A DNA stretch of 64,000 nt, taken from positions 288,105 through 352,104 of the forward strand of contig JASGKA010000001.1 of NCBI GenBank assembly GCA_047600985.1, read 5' to 3'. The notes below the pieces were generated by a model. It saw only the letters and a list, made by a program, of their open reading frames with translations. It had not been told where the DNA came from and ran no database searches. Position 1 is the first letter of the stretch, and the number at the start of each line of letters is the position of its first letter. The position numbers and the translations under genes were made by a program. This document shows, in pieces, positions 4,638 through 25,310 of the stretch. This DNA is from Pyrinomonadaceae bacterium (GTDB lineage: Bacteria > Acidobacteriota > Blastocatellia > Pyrinomonadales > Pyrinomonadaceae).

Positions 4638-4687
4638 CGCCGTAAATTACCGGCTTCATCTGTATGTGCAAAAATCGCGTATTCGTT

Positions 4688-5256: not shown

Positions 5257-8200
5257 TCACAGTTCTCCCTGAATAATAAATCCTGCCCAGTAGTACGGAG
5301 AGCGATAACGCGGGATCTTTCTGAGTTCACTCTGAGCCGACCGAAGTGCGGTCGCGGGCGGCATCTTGTTCTGCAGCATGTTTCGGTAGAAGACCTTCAT
5401 GAATTCAGCGGTCGCGGCGTCGTCCACCTTCCAAAGGCTTGAAACTACCCGCCGCGCACCGGCAAACATAAATCCACGCGTCAGGCCGATCAAACCTTCG
5501 CCGCGAATATCCTTGCCAAGAGCGGTCTGACACGCGCTCAGAACGACGAGGTCGCTATTCAGCTTTAAATTGTATATCTGACCGAGCCTCATCACGCCGT
5601 CCTTCGGTTTCCCGTCGCTGCCGTAGAGTGAAAGCACGAGACCGGAAAACTCCGGATTTGTCGTATCGAGCAATCCATGCGTCGCGAAATGAACAATGCG
5701 GTATTGCGTGAGATCATGGCCGATCACATTGTCACGATTCGCTTCGAAATCGACATTGACCTCAGCCTTCCCGTCCTGAACGAACGCCGCGATATTCCTC
5801 GCCTCGACCCGCGATGAAAGCAGCCTCGGAAGTCCCTCGGTCAGGTTAACGTCGCGGAGAAGCCGTCGGGTGGACGTGGGCGTCGTTTCAAATGTAACGT
5901 TTGCCGCTTTTAGTCTGACGTCATCCTTCGCAAAAACAGCGTCCGCAAAAACTGCGAGTGTTTTCGCCGCCGGTTTCACGTTGTCCGTTTTCGAACGAAG
6001 TTCGCTGAGGACGCTCGCCGATGGAAGTGAGACGATCTCTTTCGGACCCGCGTTCTCAGCGAGCAAGGCGAAAGGTAGAAATTGAAGGATTCCGTCTGCA
6101 ACCACAACCAGCTTTTTGCCCTTGATCGCAGTAGATGCTGGTCCGAGAATTTTTTTACTGACATCTTGCTTAAGAGCATCTATCTTCGGCTCATTGTTCG
6201 TGCTATTCGCGACAAGTCCGTCGTAAAGCTCTTTTGCTTTTGTATCGATCTCAGCACGCGGGCCGAGTTCGACGACCGAAACATCTTTGTTAGTCACGAT
6301 CCATAGAAAACTCTGTTCGTCGCCGAGTTTGTATTCGAGCAAAACAGTATCTGAACCGATCAGGCTTTGGGTTTTTGAAACCGTAAAGTTCTCCGGGCTA
6401 ACGAGATCCGCGTATCTGCGATTTTGGCCATGGATCTTCTGCTTGACCGCCGTCAGTTGATCGTCGATGCCCAAGATCTCCTGCTTCAGCTCTTTCGCGC
6501 GATCTTCCGAATACTTTCCGGCCAGCATCTGCGATAGCTGACGGGACCGTCCCGTGACAAGCTCGGTCAACCGCCGTTCTTCGGCAACCAGAGTCGGATC
6601 GATCTTATCGGCGATCTCGACCCGTGCCTGCTGCAACAGCTCGATCAAAACGCGAGCCCGCGAGCGTTCGCTGATCTCGTATGCGGCTGATATCGAGCTT
6701 TGGTTCTTCTCTGATAAGGTCAGTTCGATCAGGAGCTGATAATATTGCTGCACCGATGCAAAATACGAGGCTCTTAGCCGTTGATCCGGTATCGTCCCTC
6801 GAAACTTTTCGACGAGAGCTATCGCGGCTTCGACACTCCGCTTCGCCTCATCAGCACGTTTCAGATCTCTGAGAGCTCGTGCCTTTCGATAAAGCAGTAA
6901 TGCCTCCTGATTTTTGTCCTCGAGGCGGTGCCAGATCTCTGCGGAACTCGCAAATCGGTCGAGAGCCGCAGCTTTGTCACCATTCTGGTCGGCGATCTGA
7001 CCGAGACTCGCGAGGTTTGACGCTTCGTCGCGTCGATTTTCGACTTCGCGATTTAGGGCTAATGCCTGTCCTAGAAGATCTGAAGCCGCTTTCAGGTCTC
7101 CTTTTTTCCGTTCGATAGATGCGAGGCGGCCGAGGGTTGTCGCCTTAGAGGTCTTGTCTTTCAACTCTTCAGCGATCTTCAGGGAATCCCGGTAATAGGT
7201 AGCGGCCTTTTCGAGTTCGCCTTTCGCCTCAAATAGCGATCCGATGTTGCCCAAAACCGCACCTTCGCGGCGGCGTTCAGAATTGGCGCGGCGAAGCTTG
7301 AGCGATTCTTCGTAGTACTTTAATCCTTTCTCATCGTCGCCGAGCGTATGGTAGAGCAACCCAAGGTTATTGAGGCTCGAACCTTCTGCACCGCTCTTTA
7401 TCTCACGGTCCATCGCGATCGATCTTTCGTAAAGCTCAAGAGCTTTGTCGATCTCGCCTAGACGATCGTATGCACCGGCGATCGTGCCGGTGATGAGAGC
7501 GACGGCTTTCTTGTTGCCCTCCGCTTCTCGGACGACGAGAGCTTTTTCGTATAGACCGAGCGCCGTACGGACATCGCCGCTGGTGTGAAATGCGGTGCCC
7601 ATATTGAAGTAAACCCACGCAATTCCGTCCTGGTCGTTGGTTTTCTTGTAATACTCAAGAGCCTGCTCGTAATACTCGCGAGCTTTTGCGGGCTGACTGC
7701 TGTTGGCGTACACCAGACCGATGTTGCCGATCACTGTGGTTTCCGTGTAGTGATCACCGAGTTCACGATAGATGTCGCGAGCTTTGGAATAATACCCAAT
7801 TGCCTTTTCCGAATCCCCGACCCAATCGGCCACAAGCCCGAGGTTATTTGTGGCTCCTGCTTCGAGTGTCCGATCATGCGTCTCGCGTGCAATTGCGAAG
7901 GCTTTCTCAAAATTTTCCGTCGAGCCCTTCAGATCGCTAAGGTTGTAGTAGGTAAGGCCGATCTGATTTATTAAAAAACCCTGTTTGCTCTTAAATCCCA
8001 AAGATTCAGCGATCTTCAGGCTTTCGGCATATTGTGTCAGCGCTTTTCGCGAGTCGCCGAGAGAGCGAAGTCCTGACGCAAGGTATTCGTAGGCAAGGCT
8101 TTCCCAATACTTATCCTGCTTAACACGCGAAAGCGGAATGATCGCTTCGAATTTCGCGAGAGCCGCTTGCTTTGCTGCCGCACCTTCTTTCCTGAGCTTC

Positions 8201-10325: not shown

Positions 10326-11219
10326 TTAGGAAGAGTAAGTCTGGTCGGACAGCGTATCAACGCGCGACGTCAACCGAACGCGCAGAACGTTGGCGACCTC
10401 GCCGACGATCGAGTCTTGCAAAGCAAAGATATTCGACGCATCGTCGTCAAACGTTTTCGCCCAGATGATGCGTGCGTCATCGACATCGACCATCTCGACC
10501 GTGATACGAATGCGGTTCTCCGCTCGCTGGACCGAGCCCGTCACGATCGAGTCCACATTCAGTTCACGGCCAGCCGCCATCACATCGCGATCGGCAATCG
10601 ATGCCGAACCCGGCCGAACTGTCAGATCTGCAACACTACCGAGCCGTGCACGCAGAGTTTCACTGATCCCTTGCCCAATAAACTCATCACCGCGATCAGA
10701 TCTGAATTGAAGGACCGCAAGGCTCTGCTGTGAATTCCCAGCGACCGCATTCTTCAAGGCGGAAACAAAGAATGGTGAGCAGAAAGCGACTATATAAAGG
10801 ATAGCGATCGTAACGCCGGTTCGTCGGGCTCTATCAATTTCGGCAGCGTAGGTGAAGACTCTTGATCGGGCCGACGGCTTCCTCGTCGTTTCAACAGCAG
10901 CCAACTTTCGAACCGGAATAACGAAACTATATCCTTTGCCGGGAATGGTTACGATGAATTCGGCGTTACCGAACGTCTTTCTAAGCGTCGATATTTGCTG
11001 ATTGAGATTATTTCCCTCGACAACCGTATCGCTCCAAACCGCCTCGATCAAAGCCTCGCGTGTCAACGTTTTGCCGGAGTTTTTGAGAAGTATTGTCAGC
11101 GTATCAAACGCTTTTGAACTCAGCGGAAGCGATTCATCGCCGCAATACAGCCTCCTGGCTAGAGTATCGACTCTGAAGGAGCCAAACTCATAAATTGTAT
11201 CTGCTGAGCTGTTGTCCAT
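10326..11219 (-). CDS. CadC/ToxR-like one-component transcriptional regulator (winged-helix OmpR/PhoB-type DNA-binding domain, TM, periplasmic domain)
   Basis: YEFGSFRVDTLARRLYCGDESLPLSSKAFDTLTILLKNSGKTLTREALIEAVWSDTVVEGNNLNQQISTLRK is a trans_reg_C wHTH. TM helix IAILYIVAFCSPFFVSAL. The ORF runs to 11393, but the internal ATG at 11219 is preferred because the upstream ORF 11270..11623 would otherwise overlap. Confidence 0.6.
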   Translation of the reverse strand: MDNSSADTIYEFGSFRVDTLARRLYCGDESLPLSSKAFDTLTILLKNSGKTLTREALIEAVWSDTVVEGNNLNQQISTLRKTFGNAEFIVTIPGKGYSFVIPVRKLAAVETTRKPSARSRVFTYAAEIDRARRTGVTIAILYIVAFCSPFFVSALKNAVAGNSQQSLAVLQFRSDRGDEFIGQGISETLRARLGSVADLTVRPGSASIADRDVMAAGRELNVDSIVTGSVQRAENRIRITVEMVDVDDARIIWAKTFDDDASNIFALQDSIVGEVANVLRVRLTSRVDTLSDQTYSS

Positions 11220-11269
11220 GTGAATGAGGCGATTATATAGCAGTTTGCGGCGAGACGACAAGAAATTCG

Positions 11270-11623
11270 TTAAACTCGATCTAGAAAATTCTCTAGAACA
11301 AACACCTTTCTCAGCCTTAGGCGAACCGGCGTCTGGACGAGTGCGGCTGCTTTCAGGCTTTCGAAGCCTGACATGAAAAATGGTTCTTTGCAAGACGGAA
11401 TTTGGTCGAGCCAGGATGGAATATTCAAATGCATCTCATCGCATAAAGTCTCGATCACTCCAGCCAAAACGGCGTCGCGCTTTTCATCGTCCGTCTCGAA
11501 AGGCGTTGCTACTGCACTGAGGTCACGATGTCGTCGGAAATCATCAACGAAATCAAAAAGAGCTACCTTCCACCATTCCGGATCTTCGCGAAATCTCTGT
11601 TTTGTTTCAACGCAGCTTATCAT
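11270..11623 (-). CDS. hypothetical protein
   Basis: 117-aa ORF filling the gap between the VWA and CadC-like genes. No recognisable motif. Confidence 0.35.
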   Translation of the reverse strand: MISCVETKQRFREDPEWWKVALFDFVDDFRRHRDLSAVATPFETDDEKRDAVLAGVIETLCDEMHLNIPSWLDQIPSCKEPFFMSGFESLKAAALVQTPVRLRLRKVFVLENFLDRV

Positions 11624-14960: not shown

Positions 14961-16494
14961 CTATTCCAGGCCCACGAAATCCACATTTGTCACGCTCGTC
15001 GTAAACTGAAGTATCTGCGGCGAAAAACGGAATCGCTTCGAAACAACGCTGACAGTATACGTTTCGCCGATGATCACATTGTCGAAAGTATAGATACCGA
15101 AAGAGCTGGTCGTCGTGGTTCGTTTTACGTTCGACCTGTCTGTCATGCTGACGGTAGCATTTCTAAGCGGAAGGCCGGAAGGAGTTATCACCCGTCCGCT
15201 GATATTAACGCTCGGTGTGGTGAAGATGTAAGCTGAACCCGCATTCGCTATCGGATTCAGATCGTCAAAAAACTCTCCTACCAACGCCGTATTTCCACTG
15301 ATAGCGACCGAGGATCCGAAGAAATCCTCAGGAGCTCCACCATCAAAAGGTATCAGTTCTTGTTGTTCTGTCCAGATATTGTTGTTTCTTGTATATACGT
15401 AGGCCGTACCAGAACTAATACCGCCCGGCGTGTCCCCGGCGATGGCTCCGACGATTATCGTGTTCCCACCGACTGCGACCGCATAACCAAAATCATCTAT
15501 CGCCGCCCCATCAGACGCCGCCAAATGCTGCTGCTCGGTCCAAACCGTACCGTTGCGTGTAAATGCATATGCCGATCCCGCGCTGTCACCTCGGGCCGTG
15601 TCATCAAAGAATGCTCCTATCACAACCGTATTGCCGCTAATTGCAACTGCATTTCCGAAAAAATCACCTTCCGCAGCATCCGAAGCCGAGAGTTTTTGCT
15701 GCTGCGTCCAGACACCTGCGACGCGAACGAAAATATATGCTGAACCGGCATCCGTTGCGGTAGCAGAATCATCCTGGTATGAACCGGCAACGATCGTGTC
15801 GCCGTTTATGCCGACCGAAAATCCAAAGTTATCACTCGGTCCGGCATCCACTGCGTTTAGTTTTTGCTGTAGGCTCCAGACTCCGGAGGTTCGCGTATAA
15901 ACATATGCGGAACCGGCATTTTGAAGGCCCGGAGACGAATCGGCAAAGGCTCCGATAACGATCTGTATCGCCGCTGATCGCAACCGAATGGCCAAAAATA
16001 TCGAAACTCGATCGGTCGAATGCGGTTAGTTTCTGCTGAAATATCCAGTTGCTGCCCGACCGCACGAACACATAAACTGAACCGGTCGAAAAATCGTCTC
16101 GATCTGCTCCGATCACAAGGGTATCGTTCGTCATTGCGACCGACGCCCCGAAATTATCATTAGCCTCGCCGTCATCGGCGACCAGCTTTTGCTGTTGGGT
16201 CCAGACATTTCCGCTCCGTGTATAGATGTAAACGGAGCCTGCACTATCACCTGCAGGCGTATCGTCGTTGTATGACCCGACAACCGCGATATCGCCGTTT
16301 GTGGCAACCGAAGCGCCGAAGAAATCGTTTTCACCCGCATCCTGGGCCGTCAGTTTTGCCGACTGCAAAAACGCGGCAGGTGCTTGCATCAGATCGTCGT
16401 TCATCCTTGGCGTGGCCGCTAGCCCCGCGTAACCAAAGCTGAGAATAAATAGAAATGACCCGATGATCGATTTGTTTGCGCTTGAAAATTTCAT
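14961..16494 (-). pseudogene. FG-GAP repeat surface protein with C-terminal CarboxypepD_reg-like domain, interrupted by a 1-nt frameshift near 15965
   Basis: Two overlapping ORFs (15832..16560 and 14961..15995) both carry FGxSVAxxGDT..VGxxxDD FG-GAP units. The frame switches inside one repeat (FGHSVAISGDT | IVIGAFADS). Signal-peptide start at 16494 (MKFSSANKSIIGSFLFILSFGYAGLAA) with AGGAGGAG SD. Confidence 0.55.
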
Positions 16495-16680
16495 GATCTC
16501 CTCCTGTGTGATCCGAATATTAGGCCTCGGAAATAACCTTTTTCGTGATAAAATCGTCACCTTCCGGGTAATATTTCGTGACGTACTAGAGTCTGCGGCA
16601 GGAGCAACGGGAATTTCTTTAGGAAACCGTGAAGTCTTTCTGAGGTTTTGTTGAAGTTTTTGTGAATACAGGCTATCTCG

Positions 16681-18456
16681 ATGAACAGCAGCTTTTCATT
16701 CGGCAATTTTCACATTAACGGAGGCGAGCGATTGCTCTATGACGGTAGTACGCCAGTTACACTTCCGCCAAAGATCTTCGACACGCTCCTGATGCTGGTT
16801 CAGAACGCCGGACACGTGCTTAGCAAAGAAAAAATGCTTGCCGAGATATGGGAAGATAGTTTTGTCGAGGAAAATAATCTAGCTCAAAACATCTCGCATC
16901 TTCGCCGTGTTTTAGGCGAAACACAGCAGGTCAAGTTTATCGAGACGGTACCGAAATTCGGATACCGTTTTGTAGCGACGGTGGATTCGCTACCGCAAAG
17001 TATTGAATCTGCGGTCACGCACGAGGTGATCGAGCGAACAAGTGCTCGGATCTACGTCGATGATGGTTCCGAGCCTATCGAATTAGAACCCGCGACGCCC
17101 GAACCACGAGCGTTACCAAAACGTCGCCCGGAAACTCATTACGTCCAGAATGGCGAGGTCAATATTGCCTATCAGATCGTTGGTGACGGCCCGATCGATA
17201 TTGTTTTCGTGATGGGTTGGATCTCGCACCTTGAGTATTTCTGGAAGCATCACCTTTTCTCCACTTTCCTCGAACGCCTCGCTTCCTTTTCACGGCTGAT
17301 CCTATTTGATAAGCGCGGAACGGGGCTGTCTGATCGCATGCCGATCTCGGCCCTTCCTACACTCGAAGAGCGGATGGACGATGTTCGAGCCGTAATGGAC
17401 GCGGTCGGGTCAGAACGTGCTGTTCTCTTCGGTGTTTCGGAAGGCGGACCAATGTGTTCGCTATTTGCTGCGACATATCCCGAACGAACAAGTGCGGTCG
17501 TAATGTTCGGCACTTATGCGAAACGAATAAAGGACGATGACTATCCATGGGCACCGACGATCGAGCAGCGAAATAAGTTCTTCGACATTGTCCGAAGCGA
17601 TTGGGGAACTCCGGTCGGGATCGAGGAACGAGCACCGTCGATGGCAAACGATCCAGAGTTTCGCGACTGGTGGGCTGAGTATCTGCGAATGGGTGCCAGC
17701 CCGGGTGCGGCCGTCGCCCTTACAAAGATGAATTCAGAGATCGATGTCAGGAATGTCCTGCCGCTCGTTCGCGTTCCGACGCTTGTGATGCATCGGCAGG
17801 ACGACATGTGCCTCAAGGTCGAAGAAGGCCGTTTTGTTGCGGGGCAAATTCCCGGAGCAAAATACGTCGAGATGAACGGCGTCGATCATCTGCCCTTCGT
17901 AGGTGATCAGGATGCGGTTCTGGACGAGATCGAAGAATTTGTGACTGGCGTCCGGTTTGCCGGTGAATACGACCGCGTGCTCGCAACCGTGATGCACGTT
18001 AAGATCGTCGATCATATTGATGAAGCAACGCGTCGTGGCCGAGCCGATTGGGAACGGCTATTTCAACGTTCAGGCGACTACATTCGTCGACAGCTCAGTC
18101 TATTCAAGGGCAAACACGTGTCATACGACGAAACCGGCGTCCTGGCGGCATTCGACGGCCCCGCACGCGCGATCAGGTGTGCAGCGGCTATAACGCAATC
18201 CGCAAACCGGCTCGGCGTTCAAGTCAAAACCGGTCTTCACACCGGCGAGTGCGACGTTATCGGTGATTCATACGGCGGTTTTGCCGTCGCACTTGCGAAA
18301 GAGATCGCGGGCGAATCGCCGGAGGGCAGCATTCTGGTCTCGCGAACAGTAAAAGACCTCGTCGCTGGCTCGGGACTAGAGTTTTCCGAAGTCAGCAAGA
18401 GAGCCTTCGACGGCGTCGATGGTGAATGGCGACTATTTCGAGTGGAAGGCCTTTAA
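16681..18456 (+). CDS. multidomain one-component regulator: CadC-type wHTH DNA-binding domain + alpha/beta-hydrolase fold + class III nucleotidyl cyclase homology domain
   Basis: N-terminal LLYDGSTPVTLPPKIFDTLLMLVQNAGHVLSKEKMLAEIWEDSFVEENNLAQNISHLRRVLGE is a wHTH. Middle: NIAYQIVGDGPIDIVFVMGWISH...GVSEGGPM is an alpha/beta-hydrolase nucleophile-elbow-like region. C-terminal GLHTGECDVIGDSYGGFAVALAKEIA is a cyclase homology domain. Confidence 0.7.
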   Translation: MNSSFSFGNFHINGGERLLYDGSTPVTLPPKIFDTLLMLVQNAGHVLSKEKMLAEIWEDSFVEENNLAQNISHLRRVLGETQQVKFIETVPKFGYRFVATVDSLPQSIESAVTHEVIERTSARIYVDDGSEPIELEPATPEPRALPKRRPETHYVQNGEVNIAYQIVGDGPIDIVFVMGWISHLEYFWKHHLFSTFLERLASFSRLILFDKRGTGLSDRMPISALPTLEERMDDVRAVMDAVGSERAVLFGVSEGGPMCSLFAATYPERTSAVVMFGTYAKRIKDDDYPWAPTIEQRNKFFDIVRSDWGTPVGIEERAPSMANDPEFRDWWAEYLRMGASPGAAVALTKMNSEIDVRNVLPLVRVPTLVMHRQDDMCLKVEEGRFVAGQIPGAKYVEMNGVDHLPFVGDQDAVLDEIEEFVTGVRFAGEYDRVLATVMHVKIVDHIDEATRRGRADWERLFQRSGDYIRRQLSLFKGKHVSYDETGVLAAFDGPARAIRCAAAITQSANRLGVQVKTGLHTGECDVIGDSYGGFAVALAKEIAGESPEGSILVSRTVKDLVAGSGLEFSEVSKRAFDGVDGEWRLFRVEGL

Positions 18457-18463
18457 AGCATCA

Positions 18464-21400
18464 TTACTCGAGCCCCACAAGATCTCCAACCGCAAGATCG
18501 CCGTTCACCTGAAGGATCCTTGGTGAAAACCTGTATCGCTTCGAGGAAACCGTCAGTGTATAACTTCCGGCGGCCGGAACATTCGAAAAGGAAAAAATGC
18601 CGAATGAGCTTGTCGTCGCAACGCGCCTGACACTTGCAGAATCGATCAAGAAAACGCTCGCATTCCGTAATCCGAGCCCTGATGGCGTAACGACGCGTCC
18701 GCTGACCGTTGCGTTTGGACACTCCAAGGTCAACACTAGATCGAAAACCGGCGGCGGTATGGTCTGAACGCTTGTTTCAGCCGACGCCTGATTAGGATTG
18801 CCTGGAGCGAAACACCCTGCTTTCGATGCGCGAACCTTATAAAATCCAGTTATGACGTCCCAGCCAAACATTCCGCTGGTATTCGTCACGTCGGGGTTAC
18901 GGCGGTTCCCGGGTGACATTTGAGCACTCCCGTCCGGGACCGACAAGAATGGACCATTCGCAGTATCAGACCGCAGTAGTACAACGGTGGCTCCGCTCAC
19001 GGGGACATTATTGGTATTTTGTACAACGCCGCTCGGATCATTGTAGATATTAAAGTTAGAAGCATTCGGATTGCCGCCGTCCGCATCCGAAACCACCATT
19101 GAAACCAATGAGTTTCCGTGAGCTGGTGCAAGTGACGGAACTGTAGCCTGATAATTTCCGCTTCCCGGTGGAGTTTCGTTCATAGAGCCGCTCGCAAGAG
19201 TCACGTTGTCCTGACTTATGGCGTATCGCGCCGTTCGGTTCGCTCCTCCCGTGGTCGTAAGGGTCAACGTATCTCGCCAGAAGACCGTAGGCACGCCACC
19301 CGTTCCCGCACTACTCGGCACGATGGTCGTGCCTGCCGGGGGAAGTATCGGACGTGCCAACAATATGTTCTGGTTTGTAAGGGGTACTGAGCAGCTCTGC
19401 ACCGACCGATTCAGAAGCGTTCCGGGCAAGTCGGTGGAACCAGCCGGCGGATAAACCTTAATGTCATACAGGGCGTTCACCGGTATACCGAAAAAATGAT
19501 AGTTTCCCGATGCGTCGGTCGTCGCACCAAACGGACATGGGCCAGTATTTGGTTCACAAGCCTGTACCAAAGCACCGGGAACCGGGCCTTGCGAATTCTG
19601 CACAACCCCGACGATCTCGCCGCATGTGGTAGGTGACGCTCCTGTAAGTCTTAGGATCGGCTGGTCAACGACACTAGGTTGATCGTTTCCGCCACGAACC
19701 TGATACTGTCCTTCGGCAGAACTTGCATTGTCCAGATACAAACAAGCTCCGCAGTTTACCGCTCCGCCATCGCTCGTTGTATTGATACCCAACCCGCCGA
19801 TATTTCTAAATCCGATAAAATATCTCGTAGCTGCTGTGATCGCAAGCGGCGCAAATGTTCCGCCGCCAAGTTGATTTCGAGCCGTTATGGAATCAAAAGT
19901 TACGCTCCTAAGCAGCGTACCGCCAGCTGCCCTGCGATCCGTCAGGATCTCGATCGTCACGTTGCGGTTGGCACCATTCGAAGTGCTGAAATTCGTCTCT
20001 ATCTTTGTCAGATTCATCGAAACGCTAGGCGTGATATACCAGCCGACCGCGGTCAGGCTCGTGTCCCAAAAAGAAAACAACGGCGCGGCCGTAGCATTGA
20101 AATTATACGTCAAGGGCGTCGGACTTGGGGTCGGCGTTATTGAGCCGGTTGGGCTCGGGGACGGTGTGGGAGTTGGCGTCGGCGTCGGTGCCCCGACCGT
20201 TGTGGCCACGGGTGGACCAGGGATCTGAGCAACTCCGTCTGCCTCGATCGAATATCCGGTGTTGGTCACGGTACCGCTTGCGGTGTTAACAGTAACGGTA
20301 AAGGACACAGTTTGCGTCCCGGAATTTGCGGGCAGATTTCCGAGATTGAATACAACATTGCTACCTGAAAGAGTTCCGCCACCCGTGGCCGAAACGAATG
20401 TCGTACCAACGGGTAAAGGATCGCGGATAATAACGTTCGTTGCGGGATTGGTTCCAGTGTTTGAATAGCTGATCGTATATGTTAGATTCGCACCCGGCAG
20501 CACATTCGACGGCGCGCTTTTTGACACTGTCAAACCTGAGGCAAATCCGGGCGGCAAAAAGCGAGCGGCACCAAAACCACGGCCTCCGTCGAACGGCCCC
20601 TGGATCGGCACACTCGACGTTACCGAATTAGAATTGAACGGCGCTTTTACAAACACCGGCGGCTCGCCTGGCCCTTGTCCCGCCAAAATAGCGATCTGTC
20701 CGTCCGCACTGATCCCGACATCCTCGAAACCGAACTGTCCGGGCGGAAGCGTTAGATCGGAAACGACCGAATTGACCGAAAATGGTGCTGCGATAACCGC
20801 AGCATGATGTATTCCAACACTCGTGACAATGGCCGTCGTACCATCAGGAGTAATGGCGATCCCGTCGAGCGCGTTTCCTCCTGGCACGACCAAGGTCGAT
20901 CCTGTCGAAGCCGCGCTGAACGGCGCTTTGAAGATCTGAACACGATCAGCCGTACCAGCTGTCGTCAGCAGCGTTCCGCCATCGGGCGAGATGGCGATCG
21001 CCCCGTTCAGGCCATTGAAAACTGGTATTGTAAAAGCTACCGACGTATATGGAGCATCAAGGACCGATATACCGGTAGTGTGATAAACAAACGCACGCCC
21101 CGCCTATTAAAAACAATGGCTTGCGTTTGACCCGAAGCGATCTTGCCTGGCAGCGTTATCGATGTGACCGCTGATGATGAGTTGAATGGAGCTCGTATCA
21201 CATAGAGCTTGCTGTCGGTCGCATTAAACGTTCCCATCGCCAACGCCGCACTCAAATTTGGGGAAACTGCAATGGTGCCGGTGCCTTCATAACCGACCGC
21301 AGCCGTGTTGATAGTTGATACGACCGACGCGCTCGATACCTGAATAACGAAGATCCGCGAATTCAGGCCGTCACCTACCAGCGCGTTATCGCTGCCGTAA

Positions 21401-21729
21401 TAGGAAAGACTCTGTGGTAACGCGTCCGAGGGCAAGCCCGAAACGAGCGTCTGTGATCCCGGCGAGACGAACGGATCGGAGAAAACAACCAGGCGATTGC
21501 TGTTCGCGGCCTGATTTAAGCCCGTTGTAACCACAGCCTGGCGTGACGAAATGCTCACGATGTCAGGCTGATCGACCCTTTCTTGTTTATGGCCAATAGT
21601 CTGGAGCTCAGCCGACCAGCGAAAAACGAACAGACTCGCAAAGACAATAAGAAAAAGGGCCGAAATTGCACCAAGTGGTCTAGGGCTTTTCAAACACCGG
21701 GTATCCCACATCCGCTCGAAAGCTTTCAT
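18464..21729 (-). pseudogene. giant secreted YVTN-beta-propeller / DUF11-repeat surface protein with Pro/Thr linker and C-terminal CarboxypepD_reg-like domain; N-terminal 230 aa in a different frame (frameshift at a homopolymer)
   Basis: ORF 21037..21729 (signal anchor plus 40-residue YVTN-like repeats) and ORF 18464..20893 contain the same repeat type (KLYVIRAPFNSSSAVTSITLPG versus RVQIFKAPFSAASTGSTLVVPG). Hand translation shows the downstream frame is open back to 21103. The switch maps to a G4 tract on the coding strand at 21098-21101. DUF11-like segments (PGANLTYTISYSNTGTNPATNVIIRDPLPVGTTFV) and a TPTPTPTPSPSP linker. Confidence 0.55.
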
Positions 21730-21896
21730 TTTATATCTCCGTTCGGTCGCTTCAGATCAGCCTGTTTGCGATCAAATTTTTGTTCCCATTTGCCAATAAT
21801 TCTCTATAATGTTTTTCAAATCGGAAGATACTTAATGTAGGGAAAAGGCTCACAAAAAGCCGGAAACTTTGGGGTAATTTAGGGGAAATCTGTCAG

Positions 21897-23756
21897 ATGC
21901 GGAGCGAAATTCAAGAACAGGTGTATTTCAAATTTGGTGACTTCCAGCTTAGACCGGAAATGCGGTCGCTGCTTAATCTCGACGAGCCTGTTCATCTTGC
22001 CAAACGCCCGTTTGACATACTTCTGCATCTGGCAGAAAACCGTGATCGCGTTGTAACACGTGACGAGTTGATCGAAAAGTTCTGGGACGGACACGAGGTT
22101 TACGACGACGCTCTCAGAAAAACCATCAGTACGATCCGTCATGCGTTGAATGACACCTCTCCGCCCTGGCGGTACATCGGAACGGTACGCGGCAGTGGGT
22201 TTCGCTTCGTTGCCGAGATCAAAGAGACACATACCGGAACCTCGCCAACGGCGCTAGTCGATCATCGTCAAATACCGCGACGCGTCGGTTCACGAGCCGT
22301 CCTTTTGGTCACGCTTTTTTTGATCGTGATACTCTCCGCAAGCTTTGCGGTAAACCGATATCTGGGTGGAAACGTTAAAAGCTCCGCTCGATCGAAACCG
22401 AGCGTTACTGCGATCGCCGTTTTGCCGATACGCAATCTGACCGGTGATTCGGGTAATGACTACCTTTCGGACGGAATTAGTGAAGGGCTTATCAGCGAGA
22501 TCTCACGAAACAGCACGCTCAAAGTCATCTCGCGAAGTTCAAGTTTCTCGTTCCGAAATTCGGACGCGAACCCGAGCGAGATCGCCTCAAAGCTGGGCGT
22601 CGACGGCATCGTCGAAGGAAGTCTGAAAAAGGCGGGAAACGACCTTCGGTTAGACGTAACTTTGGTGTCGGGCACCAACGGCGAAGTGCTTTGGACGAAC
22701 GATTCGGCAAAAAATTTAATTGCAAACGTCTTTAACCTACAATCTGAGATCGCGTGCAGGTTGCTGGTCAGTGTAGATGCAGGCCGATGTTCTCAAACCG
22801 AGACACCGAAAAATGTCGATCCAGAAGCATATCGACTCTATTTGAAGGCCGTTCAAATGCGGAAAGACCTTTCTGCCGAAGGTTTGCGGAAAGCAGCCGA
22901 GATCTATATCGATTCGATCCGCATCGATCCGGACTTTGCCGCAACCCATGAAGCGTTAGCTACCGTTTATCTGATAATGGAGTCAAATTCCGCGGTTCCA
23001 CCTGGTTCCGTTATCCAAAAAGCTGAGGAGCAGGCAAACGAAGCGCTTCGGTTGGACGAATCTTCGGTTGACGCTCTGCTTGTTTTAAGCGAGACAAAAA
23101 CTGCCAAGAATTATGACCTGCAAATGCGGGAAATGTTGCTTCGGCAGGCAGTCGAGCGAAATCCGAATCATGTTCGAGCTCGTATGTGGCTTGCAAACAC
23201 ACTAACAGTCAGAGCAAAATTCGCGGAAGCGGAAAGCCAGCTTTTAGTCGCTCAGCAACTCGATCCCCTATCGCAGGGTGTCAGGATCAACCTATTTGAG
23301 TTATATCAATATTGGCGAAGGCCGGAAAAGGCCGCTGAGCAGGCCGATCTTTTGCTAAGTCTCGATCCGGACAATACATCTGGGTTGTGGATGAACGCGA
23401 AGTTGTTGCTTGATGCGGGCGAAACCACTAAGGCGAAGGAATTGTGGGATCGCCTTCCGGAAAGCGATAGGATAGATACGGAGATAGAATTTATACTGAG
23501 AAATGTTCACGGCGACGAGGCACGCAGAGCAGTAGACAAATTATCGCGAACGGATAAGGGGAAAACGTCGCCATTTTTTATCGGATGCGCATACGCTCGT
23601 ATCAATGATCGTGACGATGCGTTCGTTTGGTTTGAACGGGCGTACACGATGCGGCAATCTGACCTCGTATCACTGAAGATCGATCCTGCCCTGGATCTCG
23701 TCAGAGATGATCCGCGATATTTTGATCTGTTAAGGCGGATGCATTTAGATCAATAA
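21897..23756 (+). CDS. CadC-like transcriptional regulator with TM helix, periplasmic TolB-N-like domain and TPR repeats
   Basis: wHTH (FKFGDFQLRPEMRSLLNLDEPVHLAKRPFDILLHLAENRDRVVTRDELIEKFWDG...). TM AVLLVTLFLIVILSASFAV. C-terminal TPR-like helices. 619 aa. Confidence 0.7.
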   Translation: MRSEIQEQVYFKFGDFQLRPEMRSLLNLDEPVHLAKRPFDILLHLAENRDRVVTRDELIEKFWDGHEVYDDALRKTISTIRHALNDTSPPWRYIGTVRGSGFRFVAEIKETHTGTSPTALVDHRQIPRRVGSRAVLLVTLFLIVILSASFAVNRYLGGNVKSSARSKPSVTAIAVLPIRNLTGDSGNDYLSDGISEGLISEISRNSTLKVISRSSSFSFRNSDANPSEIASKLGVDGIVEGSLKKAGNDLRLDVTLVSGTNGEVLWTNDSAKNLIANVFNLQSEIACRLLVSVDAGRCSQTETPKNVDPEAYRLYLKAVQMRKDLSAEGLRKAAEIYIDSIRIDPDFAATHEALATVYLIMESNSAVPPGSVIQKAEEQANEALRLDESSVDALLVLSETKTAKNYDLQMREMLLRQAVERNPNHVRARMWLANTLTVRAKFAEAESQLLVAQQLDPLSQGVRINLFELYQYWRRPEKAAEQADLLLSLDPDNTSGLWMNAKLLLDAGETTKAKELWDRLPESDRIDTEIEFILRNVHGDEARRAVDKLSRTDKGKTSPFFIGCAYARINDRDDAFVWFERAYTMRQSDLVSLKIDPALDLVRDDPRYFDLLRRMHLDQ

Positions 23757-23765
23757 GATAATCAT

Positions 23766-25310
23766 ATGAAAAAATCGGCACTCGTTATTTTTATCGTTCT
23801 CGTTCTGAACGTCACGGGCCTAACACAATCGATCGAGGAAAAACTCAAAGAGATCGACGATTACGCTAATACCGTCACGCAAACATGGTCCGGGAAAAGC
23901 GGAGCCGGAATGGCAATCGCTGTAGTCAAGGATGACAAAGTCGTTTCGGCGAAAGGCTATGGCTTTCGCGAGCTTGGGAAACCTGATCCAGTCAACGCTG
24001 ACACGGTTTTTGCCATTGCATCAAACTCCAAAGCATTCACCGTCGCGAGTCTCGCAATTCTCGTCGATGAGAAAAAGCTCAACTGGAATGACAAAGTATC
24101 GAAATACCTGCCGGATTTTCAGATGTACGACCCGTGGGTGACGAGCGAGTTGACGATCCGCGATCTGGTGACGCACCGTGTCGGGCTCGACACGTTTAGC
24201 GGTGATCTGCTGTGGTACGAAACGACTTACACGCCGGACGAGATCTTGCGGCGAGTGAGATTTTTGAAGCCCGTTTCAAGCTTCCGGACGCAGTTTGGTT
24301 ATTCAAACCTGATGTTCATCGCCGCCGGAAAAGTCGTAGAAAAGGTTTCCGGCAAATCCTGGTGTTCGTTTGTAACCGAACGCATTCTCACGCCGCTCGG
24401 CATGTCGCGAACGGTTTGCAGCATCAACAACCTGCCCGACAACGCCGCGTGGCCGCATAACGAATCGGGCGGGACGCTGCGAAAACTCAACCGCGGCAAC
24501 GTCGACGGAGCGTATTCCGCGGCCGCACTGAATTCATCTGTCAATGATCTTTCGAAGTGGGTCCGCACGCAGCTTGGACGCGGCAAATTTGAAGGCAAAC
24601 AGATCTTCAGCGAGGCTCAAGCTTGGGGAATGCATCAACAATATCTCGCCCAGCAGATCGGACCACAGCCGATGGGCGGCGTCCAGCCGAGGCATTTTTC
24701 CGGAGTTGCGAGCGGTTGGTTCGTCTATGACTATTACGGCCGAAAAGTGATCAACCACAGCGGCGGCCTCGATGGAATGCTGTCATACACAGTTCTCATT
24801 CCCGAAGAAAACGCCGGATTTGTCATCCTGACAAACAGTGAATCGCCGATGTTCACGATCATGATGAACAAGATCCGCGACATCCTCGTCGGTGCCCCAA
24901 AACGCGACTGGAATGCCGAAGCCGTCACGCAGGTCGCAGGTATGAAGAAAGAGGCAGATGGCGAGGATGCAGCTTCGGACAAAGCACATGTTGCGAACAC
25001 AAAACCATCGCTCGCTTTGGCCTCATACGCCGGAAAATACTCCGACAAACTATACGGCGACGTAACGATCGCCGAAGAGAACGGCAAACTCGTGATGCGT
25101 TTCGTCCAATCGCCAAACTTCGTCGCCGATCTCGAACACTGGCACTACGACACCTGGCGGATCAAGTGGCGTCCGTCCGTCTCGTACAATTTTCCGCGAG
25201 GTTTCGTAAACTTTACGATCGACAAGGACGGCAAAACAGACAGGCTGACCGTGGACCAGCCGAACAACGATTTCTGGTTTTATGAGCTGGATCTGCGAAG
25301 GGCGAAGTAG
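23766..25310 (+). CDS. serine hydrolase, beta-lactamase/transpeptidase-like (class C-type fold) with C-terminal DUF3471-like domain
   Basis: Signal peptide. SxxK motif in AIASNSKAF, YSN motif (FGYSNLMF), HSGG (INHSGGLDG). 10 nt downstream of the CadC-TPR gene, so likely co-transcribed. Confidence 0.8.
   Translation: MKKSALVIFIVLVLNVTGLTQSIEEKLKEIDDYANTVTQTWSGKSGAGMAIAVVKDDKVVSAKGYGFRELGKPDPVNADTVFAIASNSKAFTVASLAILVDEKKLNWNDKVSKYLPDFQMYDPWVTSELTIRDLVTHRVGLDTFSGDLLWYETTYTPDEILRRVRFLKPVSSFRTQFGYSNLMFIAAGKVVEKVSGKSWCSFVTERILTPLGMSRTVCSINNLPDNAAWPHNESGGTLRKLNRGNVDGAYSAAALNSSVNDLSKWVRTQLGRGKFEGKQIFSEAQAWGMHQQYLAQQIGPQPMGGVQPRHFSGVASGWFVYDYYGRKVINHSGGLDGMLSYTVLIPEENAGFVILTNSESPMFTIMMNKIRDILVGAPKRDWNAEAVTQVAGMKKEADGEDAASDKAHVANTKPSLALASYAGKYSDKLYGDVTIAEENGKLVMRFVQSPNFVADLEHWHYDTWRIKWRPSVSYNFPRGFVNFTIDKDGKTDRLTVDQPNNDFWFYELDLRRAK

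Follow-up and report, generated by a model that had tools for sequence, protein, structure and literature searches.

A putative one-component regulator joining a winged helix, an alpha/beta-hydrolase and a degenerate class III cyclase homology domain in a Pyrinomonadaceae bacterium

Rv1900c (LipJ) of Mycobacterium tuberculosis (structures 1YBT and 1YBU) is the closest described counterpart of the protein treated here, which is encoded on the + strand at 16681..18456 of a 64,000-nucleotide stretch from a Pyrinomonadaceae bacterium (Acidobacteriota, Blastocatellia); this whole stretch is called the window below. Rv1900c is termed an adenylyl cyclase by the depositors of its structures, whose PDB titles call it active, and by NCBIfam, and LipJ was reported as an esterase (PMC10865251). 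Its whole cassette of alpha/beta-hydrolase and class III cyclase homology domain (CHD) is homologous to the one in the window, with the same domain order. LipJ, however, lacks a DNA-binding domain and retains D302, D346 and R406, whereas our protein has K441, T485 and E541 at these positions and carries an N-terminal winged helix. The first-pass annotation of this DNA had likened its CHD to non-catalytic ones in some mycobacterial hydrolase-CHD fusions. This comparison was not supported: with both metal-binding Asp and the Arg in place, Rv1900c/LipJ represents the active form and sets no precedent for a dead CHD.

Other known systems share single traits with the protein. Regulators of the CadC, HilA and ToxR type resemble it by an N-terminal Trans_reg_C domain and the lack of a receiver domain, and a tandem direct repeat is found upstream of the gene here. 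CadC and ToxR are membrane-anchored with a periplasmic sensor, whereas the present protein is predicted to be soluble, with a hydrolase and a dead cyclase as its putative input. The plant receptors D14, KAI2 and DAD2 and RsbQ of Bacillus, the latter being a bacterial precedent, use a Ser-Asp-His triad in a signalling and not a metabolic context, but they are separate proteins that signal via partners, whereas the hydrolase here is covalently fused to a DNA-binding output. Loss of catalytic residues with retention of the domain in a signalling protein is also seen in degenerate GGDEF and EAL domains, in pseudokinases and in the inactive second site of heterodimeric cyclases; in contrast to degenerate GGDEF and EAL domains and pseudokinases, the fold concerned here is that of a class III CHD. 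Mycobacterial proteins of the Rv0386 type combine a cyclase, an AAA ATPase, TPR repeats and a LuxR-type helix-turn-helix (HTH), and thus likewise unite a CHD with a DNA-binding domain in a single chain; AAA_16 with TPR, or LuxR domains, also occur in relatives of our cassette. In the Rv0386 type, however, the CHD is N-terminal and reported active, and the hydrolase domain is missing. Neither a bacterial dead CHD joined to a transcription factor nor this architecture was described in any paper that our literature searches returned.

Domain layout and catalytic positions

The first-pass annotation had placed the open reading frame (ORF) exactly, and its three-domain layout of CadC-type winged helix-turn-helix (wHTH), hydrolase and CHD was borne out by Pfam, NCBIfam, the match to 1YBT and AlphaFold2 (AF2) models. 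The gene and its domains are:

16681..18456, + strand: wHTH / alpha-beta hydrolase / pseudo-cyclase gene, 591 aa, protein identical to NCBI MFT3742929.1
16681..16995, + strand: OmpR/CadC-type wHTH, aa 1-105 (PF00486, match to 5JU7, AF2 model)
16996..17118, + strand: disordered linker, aa 106-146 (predicted local distance difference test, pLDDT, <50; low conservation)
17128..17949, + strand: alpha/beta-hydrolase domain, aa 150-423 (PF00561, Ser-Asp-His triad)
17437-17439, + strand: Ser253 in GVSEGG, kept in 120/120 close relatives
17803-17805, + strand: Asp375, kept in 119/120 close relatives
17887-17889, + strand: His403, kept in 120/120 close relatives
17971..18447, + strand: degenerate class III CHD, aa 431-589 (homology to 1YBT, AF2 model)

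Close relatives are, here and below, 120 proteins of at least 67% identity with the same architecture, and ratios of non-synonymous to synonymous substitution rates (dN/dS) are medians across 25 orthologue pairs.

The full-length AF2 model (pLDDT 84.9, pTM 0.71) showed four regions, the C-terminal one with the strand and helix order of cyclases. In Pfam, Trans_reg_C (PF00486) matched aa 24-97 (E 4.6e-18, 65.5 bits against a cut-off of 26.2) and Abhydrolase_1 (PF00561) matched aa 174-407 (E 1.2e-13, 51.8 bits against 25.8), the latter in agreement with the hydrolase fold proposed before. The NCBIfam model for LipJ, a bifunctional lipase/adenylate cyclase (NF058673), covered aa 148-586 with E 5e-103 and was spanned from position 6 to 447 of 449. 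By this profile match the protein is a LipJ homologue. It does not have equivalog status, because its 345 bits are far under the 800-bit equivalog cut-off. NCBI annotates it as 'MAG: alpha/beta fold hydrolase [Pyrinomonadaceae bacterium]' and places it on a contig of 1.44 Mb.

The CHD was not detected by its own Pfam model: Guanylate_cyc (PF00211) gave no match in the 591-aa protein even at E<=10. Despite this, the C-terminal 170 aa, which had been assigned by eye to the class III CHDs, matched 1YBT, the CHD of Rv1900c, with E 7.5e-23 and Ma1120 of M. avium with 1e-11 in a phmmer search of the PDB. A profile of 16 family sequences gave 3.7e-37 for 1YBT, 8e-18 for Ma1120 and 3.9e-8 for 3MR7. 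Foldseek on the full-length model returned hydrolase matches alone, and the CHD was therefore modelled and searched by itself. This model (pLDDT 91.8) superposed on 1YBU of Rv1900c with a template modelling (TM) score of 0.89 and 1.6 A, and all of its best 50 PDB structure matches (50/50) were class III cyclases, so that the fold is that of the class III family. Within the family, PF00211 responds solely to members in which the catalytic residues are kept (P0156 and P0165).

With no PF00211 alignment at hand, the six canonical positions were read via Rv1900c, Ma1120 and a hidden Markov model (HMM) of active-like relatives. Three alignments were used: those of HMMER to 1YBT and Ma1120, a MAFFT alignment with 134 family representatives, and a gapless alignment of 169 columns (180 bits) to the HMM of 63 active-like relatives. 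All three agreed that none of the six class III positions is canonical (6/6 non-canonical):

18001-18003, + strand: metal Asp 1, Rv1900c D302 to K441 (HVK441IV in place of FTD302IV)
18121-18123, + strand: substrate Lys position, N342 to S481 (three alignments)
18133-18135, + strand: metal Asp 2, D346 to T485 (DET485G in place of AGD346G)
18268-18270, + strand: substrate Asp, D395 to S530 (three alignments)
18289-18291, + strand: transition-state Asn position, H402 to A537 (three alignments)
18301-18303, + strand: transition-state Arg, R406 to E541 (three alignments)

The residue numbers of Rv1900c are those of the 1YBT chain, anchored on N342 and H402 as reported by Sinha et al. 2005. The replacement of both metal-binding Asp, read by eye in the first-pass annotation, is thus confirmed (K441 for D302, T485 for D346), and the degeneracy is wider than was proposed there, since none of the six residues is left and orthologues differ at these positions. 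In Rv1900c, according to the same 2005 study, Asn is reportedly accepted in place of the substrate Lys, and His in place of the catalytic Asn. That His stands in for the catalytic Asn of Rv1900c is also described elsewhere (PMC4886424).

Among the close relatives the six former catalytic positions are some of the least conserved of the domain. Position 441 is occupied by K, S, R, Q or A and never by Asp (0/120), position 485 by N, D, G, T, S or E, and position 530 by T, K, S, V or A; S481 and S530 occupy the places of the substrate-specifying pair, which is Lys/Asp for ATP and of Glu/Cys type for GTP, and both positions vary in the family. The scaffold, on the other hand, holds invariant motifs (RVLATV, AxFDGPAR, GxHTGEC, TVKDLVAGSG and WRLF), and E523-C524-D525, which follows the GxHTG motif, is invariant as well. 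The mean pairwise identity of the CHD is 0.63 and its dN/dS is 0.10, a value that fits the structural or regulatory, non-catalytic role suggested for it previously. Judged from its sequence, the CHD is a conserved pseudo-cyclase under purifying selection, and the protein would make no cyclic nucleotide (cAMP). A pseudogene or a decaying CHD was considered and ruled out by the same dN/dS value and by the identity of 0.63, against 0.28 in the linker.

Among the domains, constraint is strongest on the hydrolase (identity 0.83, dN/dS 0.06). It reached no NCBIfam equivalog cut-off that would place it in a curated enzyme family; 3-oxoadipate enol-lactonase PcaD (TIGR02427) gave 82.5 bits against an equivalog cut-off of 255.85. 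In Foldseek it resembled D14, KAI2, DAD2 and RsbQ as well as aryl esterases, such as a Pseudomonas aryl esterase, with TM scores of about 0.8. The sequence matches to D14, KAI2 and RsbQ (E 1e-7 to 1e-12, identity about 20%) had E-values equal to those of aryl esterases. Membership in the D14/KAI2/RsbQ group is not established, because this similarity is no stronger than that to ordinary esterases.

The winged helix was matched in the PDB by the DNA-binding domain of CadC, 5JU7 (E 2.3e-10), and in NCBIfam by the DNA-binding regions of HilA/EilA and CadC. It was modelled with a pLDDT of about 90 and has a dN/dS of 0.11. The region of its recognition helix, V62-E-E-N-N66 .. Q69-N-I-S72 .. R75, is invariant across the family. 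The linker, with a mean pairwise identity of 0.28 and a dN/dS of 0.24, is the variable part. No transmembrane segment was found in the protein, the highest 19-residue hydropathy (1.28) being inside a strand of the hydrolase. A CadC-like membrane topology was ruled out for want of a hydrophobic segment, the linker being hydrophilic and disordered. The domain content points to a soluble one-component transcription regulator. A role in anti-phage defence was also considered and dropped, as PADLOC returned just one marginal match to a generic hydrolase.

The hydrolase-CHD cassette across its family

The architecture had been called unusual in the first-pass annotation. It is very common, and automated annotation already shows it: more than 120 protein clusters of at least 67% identity share the order wHTH, hydrolase and CHD, and the names given to them by JGI list a wHTH, an esterase and a third label that ends at 'cl', which we read as class 3 adenylate cyclase. 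There are at least 573 matches to the gene in species-representative genomes. The best 80 of these are nearly all labelled Acidobacteriota (Pyrinomonadaceae, Blastocatellia, Chloracidobacterium or unclassified), with one contig labelled Nitrospiraceae.

When 1.84 billion cluster representatives were searched exhaustively with HMMER, 4461 relatives emerged at E<1e-30, and domains and catalytic signatures were surveyed in the top 150 of these representatives (P0121-P0270). The unit that they share is the cassette of hydrolase and CHD. Seventy occur as stand-alone cassettes of about 445 aa with no N-terminal extension; 55 of the 70 keep the D..D..R residues, most commonly in the signature DKDDHR, that of Rv1900c being DNDDHR. 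None of the 22 wHTH-fused forms keeps D..D..R. An extra region of at least 60 aa was present in 67 of 73 representatives with a degenerate CHD versus 9 of 63 active-like ones. Catalytic loss in the CHD thus goes with fusion to an output domain across the hydrolase-CHD family. The Fisher p-values of this association are inflated by shared ancestry and serve for description only.

The extra regions were identified by Pfam scans of 20 sampled proteins. They include N-terminal wHTH with BTAD (SARP-like), Ser/Thr kinase, kinase with wHTH, AAA_16 with TPR, AraC-type HTH and wHTH; a C-terminal LuxR/GerE HTH was found in 7 of 10 sampled. A rough neighbour-joining (NJ) tree implied about 10 transitions between active and degenerate CHDs and about 36 changes of fusion partner. 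The cassette has clearly moved among outputs many times, and because it was repeatedly shuffled in this way it behaves as an input module.

The Ser-Asp/Glu-His triad of the hydrolase is kept in 62 of 73 degenerate-CHD representatives versus 36 of 63 active-like ones. Seen from the other side, degeneration is reciprocal, since 27 of 63 stand-alone active-like cassettes versus 11 of 73 dead-cyclase cassettes have lost the hydrolase triad. One member, P0156 (718 aa), combines wHTH and BTAD (SARP-like) with a hydrolase and a CHD that is matched by PF00211 and has the full signature DKDDAR, as in Ma1120. Going by this signature it is apparently an active cyclase fused to a DNA-binding domain, and because P0156 keeps all these residues, such a fusion is not strictly tied to catalytic loss.

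The upstream repeat array and the neighbouring genes

The elements around the gene to which we refer are:

15832..16560, - strand: FG-GAP_2 repeat (secreted) gene, divergent, sharing with the regulator gene the 120-bp intergenic region that contains the array
16617..16669, + strand: candidate operator, five direct repeats with 10/11/11/11-bp spacing (Tandem Repeats Finder, TRF; pattern scans; conservation)
23766..25310, + strand: beta-lactamase-family / DUF3471 gene, a conserved downstream partner in orthologous loci
L001 5549-5851 and L032 7506-7808, - strand: examples, from two orthologous loci, of a gene of about 100 aa with Cys and His residues, a conserved divergent partner

The array lies in the 65 bp upstream of the start codon and stops 12 nt short of the ATG. 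Its leader unit, CTTTAGGAA, has the core triplet TAG at 16620, and the four nnnTGAR units behind it have TGA at 16630, 16641, 16652 and 16663. TRF reported a period of 11 with 3.5 copies. The pattern TGAR-N7-TGAR-N7-TGAR occurs once in the 64 kb, at the array (expected 0.07), and CTTTAG..TGAR..TGAR has one match in the window (expected 0.01). Of 80 orthologous loci, 61 have an array of the same type no more than 150 bp before the ATG, with the unit consensus W-TTTCTGAAR and a nearly invariant leader unit TCTTTAGRAA, in which TCTTTAG is conserved at 94% or more. In some of these loci (L029 and L031) short simple tandem repeats, e.g. GACTTGGGACTTGGG and AGTGAAAAGTGAAGAGTGAAAAG, are located between array and ATG.

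Winged helices of the OmpR/PhoB family classically bind to tandem direct repeats that are spaced by one helical turn. The array at 16617..16669 is likely this protein's own operator; we propose it as a candidate because of this layout and of the invariant recognition-helix region. The window holds two further wHTH genes, so that three CadC-like wHTH genes lie within 13 kb, and the array is present at the target gene alone. One of the two, at 10326-11393 (-), encodes a Trans_reg_C regulator of 355 aa with weak TolB_N/FlgO-like matches and a wHTH that shares 41% identity with the target's; the other is a wHTH+TPR regulator at 21897..23756 (+). Scans of 16400-16760 for sigma-70 promoters and terminators recognised none.

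Across the 2.25 Mb scanned, 43 further array matches were found, of which 41 are on the strand of the regulator gene and upstream of it, most of them beside FG-GAP or small-protein genes of the local cluster. Many are placed 88-157 bp upstream of genes for secreted proteins of FG-GAP_3 type or of the small Cys/His gene. Additional 11-bp arrays of TCTTTAG and TTCTGAAR are seen, for instance, at 2724-2761, 4650-4687 and 5906-5932 of locus L032, and in L031, L019, L050 and others. The FG-GAP_3-type genes behind such arrays encode about 408 aa and are near the regulator, and the array is always oriented as it is before the regulator gene. This arrangement suggests a local regulon in the relatives.

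In the window itself, the FG-GAP_2 gene at 15832..16560 is a possible co-regulated target. Its link to the array is weak, because the FG-GAP_3-type genes of the relatives are not its orthologues. On the - strand, the FG-GAP_2 ORF at 15832..16560 shares 164 nt with a second one at 14961..15995, which is read in another frame. Together (14961-16560) they resemble a single gene for a secreted protein with FG-GAP and CarboxypepD_reg domains that a frameshift has broken in two, which may mark a pseudogene or a fault in the assembly.

In 28 of the fetched loci a beta-lactamase/DUF3471 gene is located downstream on the strand of the regulator, in 15 of these 28 at a distance of 90 bp or less, and it directly follows the regulator in the close relatives L001 and L002. 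In the window about 5.3 kb with three genes (18464-23756) separate the two: a secreted DUF11/CarboxypepD_reg protein (-), an ORF of 230 aa of no known family (-) and the wHTH+TPR regulator, which ends 10 nt before the beta-lactamase-family gene. This insertion was found in none of 84 fetched loci (0/84), and the placement of the gene behind the wHTH+TPR regulator may reflect a regulator swap.

In 44 loci a divergent gene of about 100 aa, with an invariant CxxC and a later His and Cys, is situated upstream of the orthologues. It has no Pfam match, and its residue pattern is that of what is probably a small zinc-binding protein. Neither this gene nor the FG-GAP_3 genes of the relatives has a homologue in the 64-kb window, and the regulon inferred in the relatives is therefore not directly transferable to it. 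A HicB/HicA toxin-antitoxin pair is found just downstream of the regulator or beta-lactamase genes in several loci (e.g. L001 9369-9787 and L004 7994-8412); near the gene in this window it was not found.

Proposed mechanism and competing explanations

We favour, with a probability of roughly 0.6, a soluble one-component regulator with the hydrolase as its sensor, the dead CHD as the part that dimerises or transduces, and winged helices that bind the upstream repeats. The hydrolase would be the signal input, binding and probably hydrolysing a small ligand of ester or lactone type. The dead CHD would supply or transmit a ligand-dependent dimerisation. Class III CHDs work as head-to-tail dimers in active cyclases, where regulatory domains re-orient the dimer, and it is because of this mode of action that we propose a dimerisation role for the pseudo-CHD. 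Dimerisation would then load two or more linker-tethered winged helices onto the tandem TTCTGAAR repeats, and their binding would control the gene's own promoter and the divergent neighbour; in the relatives it would control the local cluster of FG-GAP secreted proteins and the gene of the small Cys/His protein.

Several observations weigh against this proposal. The association of fusion with catalytic loss goes back to few independent events, about 10 transitions in the rough NJ tree. The structural match of the hydrolase to D14, KAI2 and RsbQ is no better than that to ordinary esterases, and these receptors have more than their share of PDB entries. The array ends 12 nt from the start codon with no recognised sigma-70-like promoter, and another factor could bind there. 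Finally, of the usual partners of the gene, the small Cys/His gene is missing from the window and the beta-lactamase-family gene is displaced in it.

The third of these points leads to a rather unlikely alternative, in which the 11-bp array is part of a promoter or a site for some other regulator of the FG-GAP and small-protein cluster and the wHTH of our protein binds elsewhere. The occurrence of arrays before further genes of the neighbourhood would fit this, as would the position next to the start codon, which is odd for an activator site. However, array and gene go together in the 61 of 80 loci mentioned above, among them the window, where the other genes of the cluster are missing. The one-helical-turn spacing suits a winged helix of OmpR/PhoB type, the recognition helix is invariant over the same set of species, and the two other wHTH genes of the window have no array.

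It is unlikely that the protein is a trigger enzyme, i.e. mainly a metabolic esterase or lactonase whose wHTH merely autoregulates and whose dead CHD is an oligomerisation scaffold. Such an enzyme might act, for example, with the beta-lactamase-family serine hydrolase encoded downstream in the relatives, 90 bp or less away in 15 loci. The strong constraint on the hydrolase with its perfect triad argues for this explanation, together with the array at the gene's own promoter and with the best family-level matches, which are enzymes (3-oxoadipate enol-lactonase, macrolide esterases and TtEst-type esterases). Yet none of these matches reached an equivalog cut-off, arrays are also present at other promoters of the local cluster, and the cassette of hydrolase and dead CHD is found on at least five output domains including a protein kinase, which is the pattern of a sensor module.

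We regard it as very unlikely that the dead CHD is itself an allosteric ligand site, its former active-site cleft at the dimer interface binding a nucleotide or small molecule, with the hydrolase as an accessory. A parallel would be the forskolin or second-site pocket of mammalian cyclases. The preserved fold and dimer-forming scaffold under purifying selection are compatible with such a site, as is the invariant E523-C524-D525 after GxHTG. The six positions lining the pocket, however, are the most variable of the domain among orthologues, which a conserved pocket would not tolerate, and the hydrolase is more conserved than the CHD.

That the CHD still works as a cyclase via non-canonical or relocated residues is hardly credible: Rv1900c itself does carry substitutions (Asn for Lys, as noted above, and His for Asn, PMC4886424) and D444, D483/E484 and D529 are near the lost Asp positions, but both metal Asp and the transition-state Arg are gone together, position 441 is acidic in 0/120 relatives, the nearby acidic residues vary (D or G at 483; E, D, N or K at 484), and PF00211 detects the relatives that keep the residues and misses this protein.

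Returning to the one-component regulator, we can extend it, as a tentative idea on the doubtful side, to the whole family. The hydrolase + dead-cyclase cassette might be a general bacterial module for the perception of small molecules, in which ligand hydrolysis at the Ser-Asp-His triad, as in the plant receptors D14 and KAI2, would change the conformation and a pseudo-cyclase dimer would relay this change to directly attached DNA-binding or kinase outputs, and which, in Blastocatellia, would switch the FG-GAP cluster via the 11-bp repeats.

In conclusion, we describe a large clade of LipJ-like hydrolase-cyclases in which the cyclase chemistry was lost and the fold was kept under selection. 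Its repeated wiring to wHTH, SARP-type, LuxR, AraC and kinase outputs points to an unrecognised sensor or dimerisation module, common in soil Acidobacteriota and beyond. Class III CHDs are usually taken as makers of cAMP or cGMP; a large set of 'cyclases' is re-read here as non-catalytic, and such proteins should not count as sources of cAMP in genome surveys. Very few transcription factors are characterised in Acidobacteriota, for which the present data offer a concrete candidate operator and a candidate local regulon. If true, the reading of the cassette as a perception module would establish a new class of one-component sensors and, for the first time, assign a function to a bacterial pseudo-CHD.

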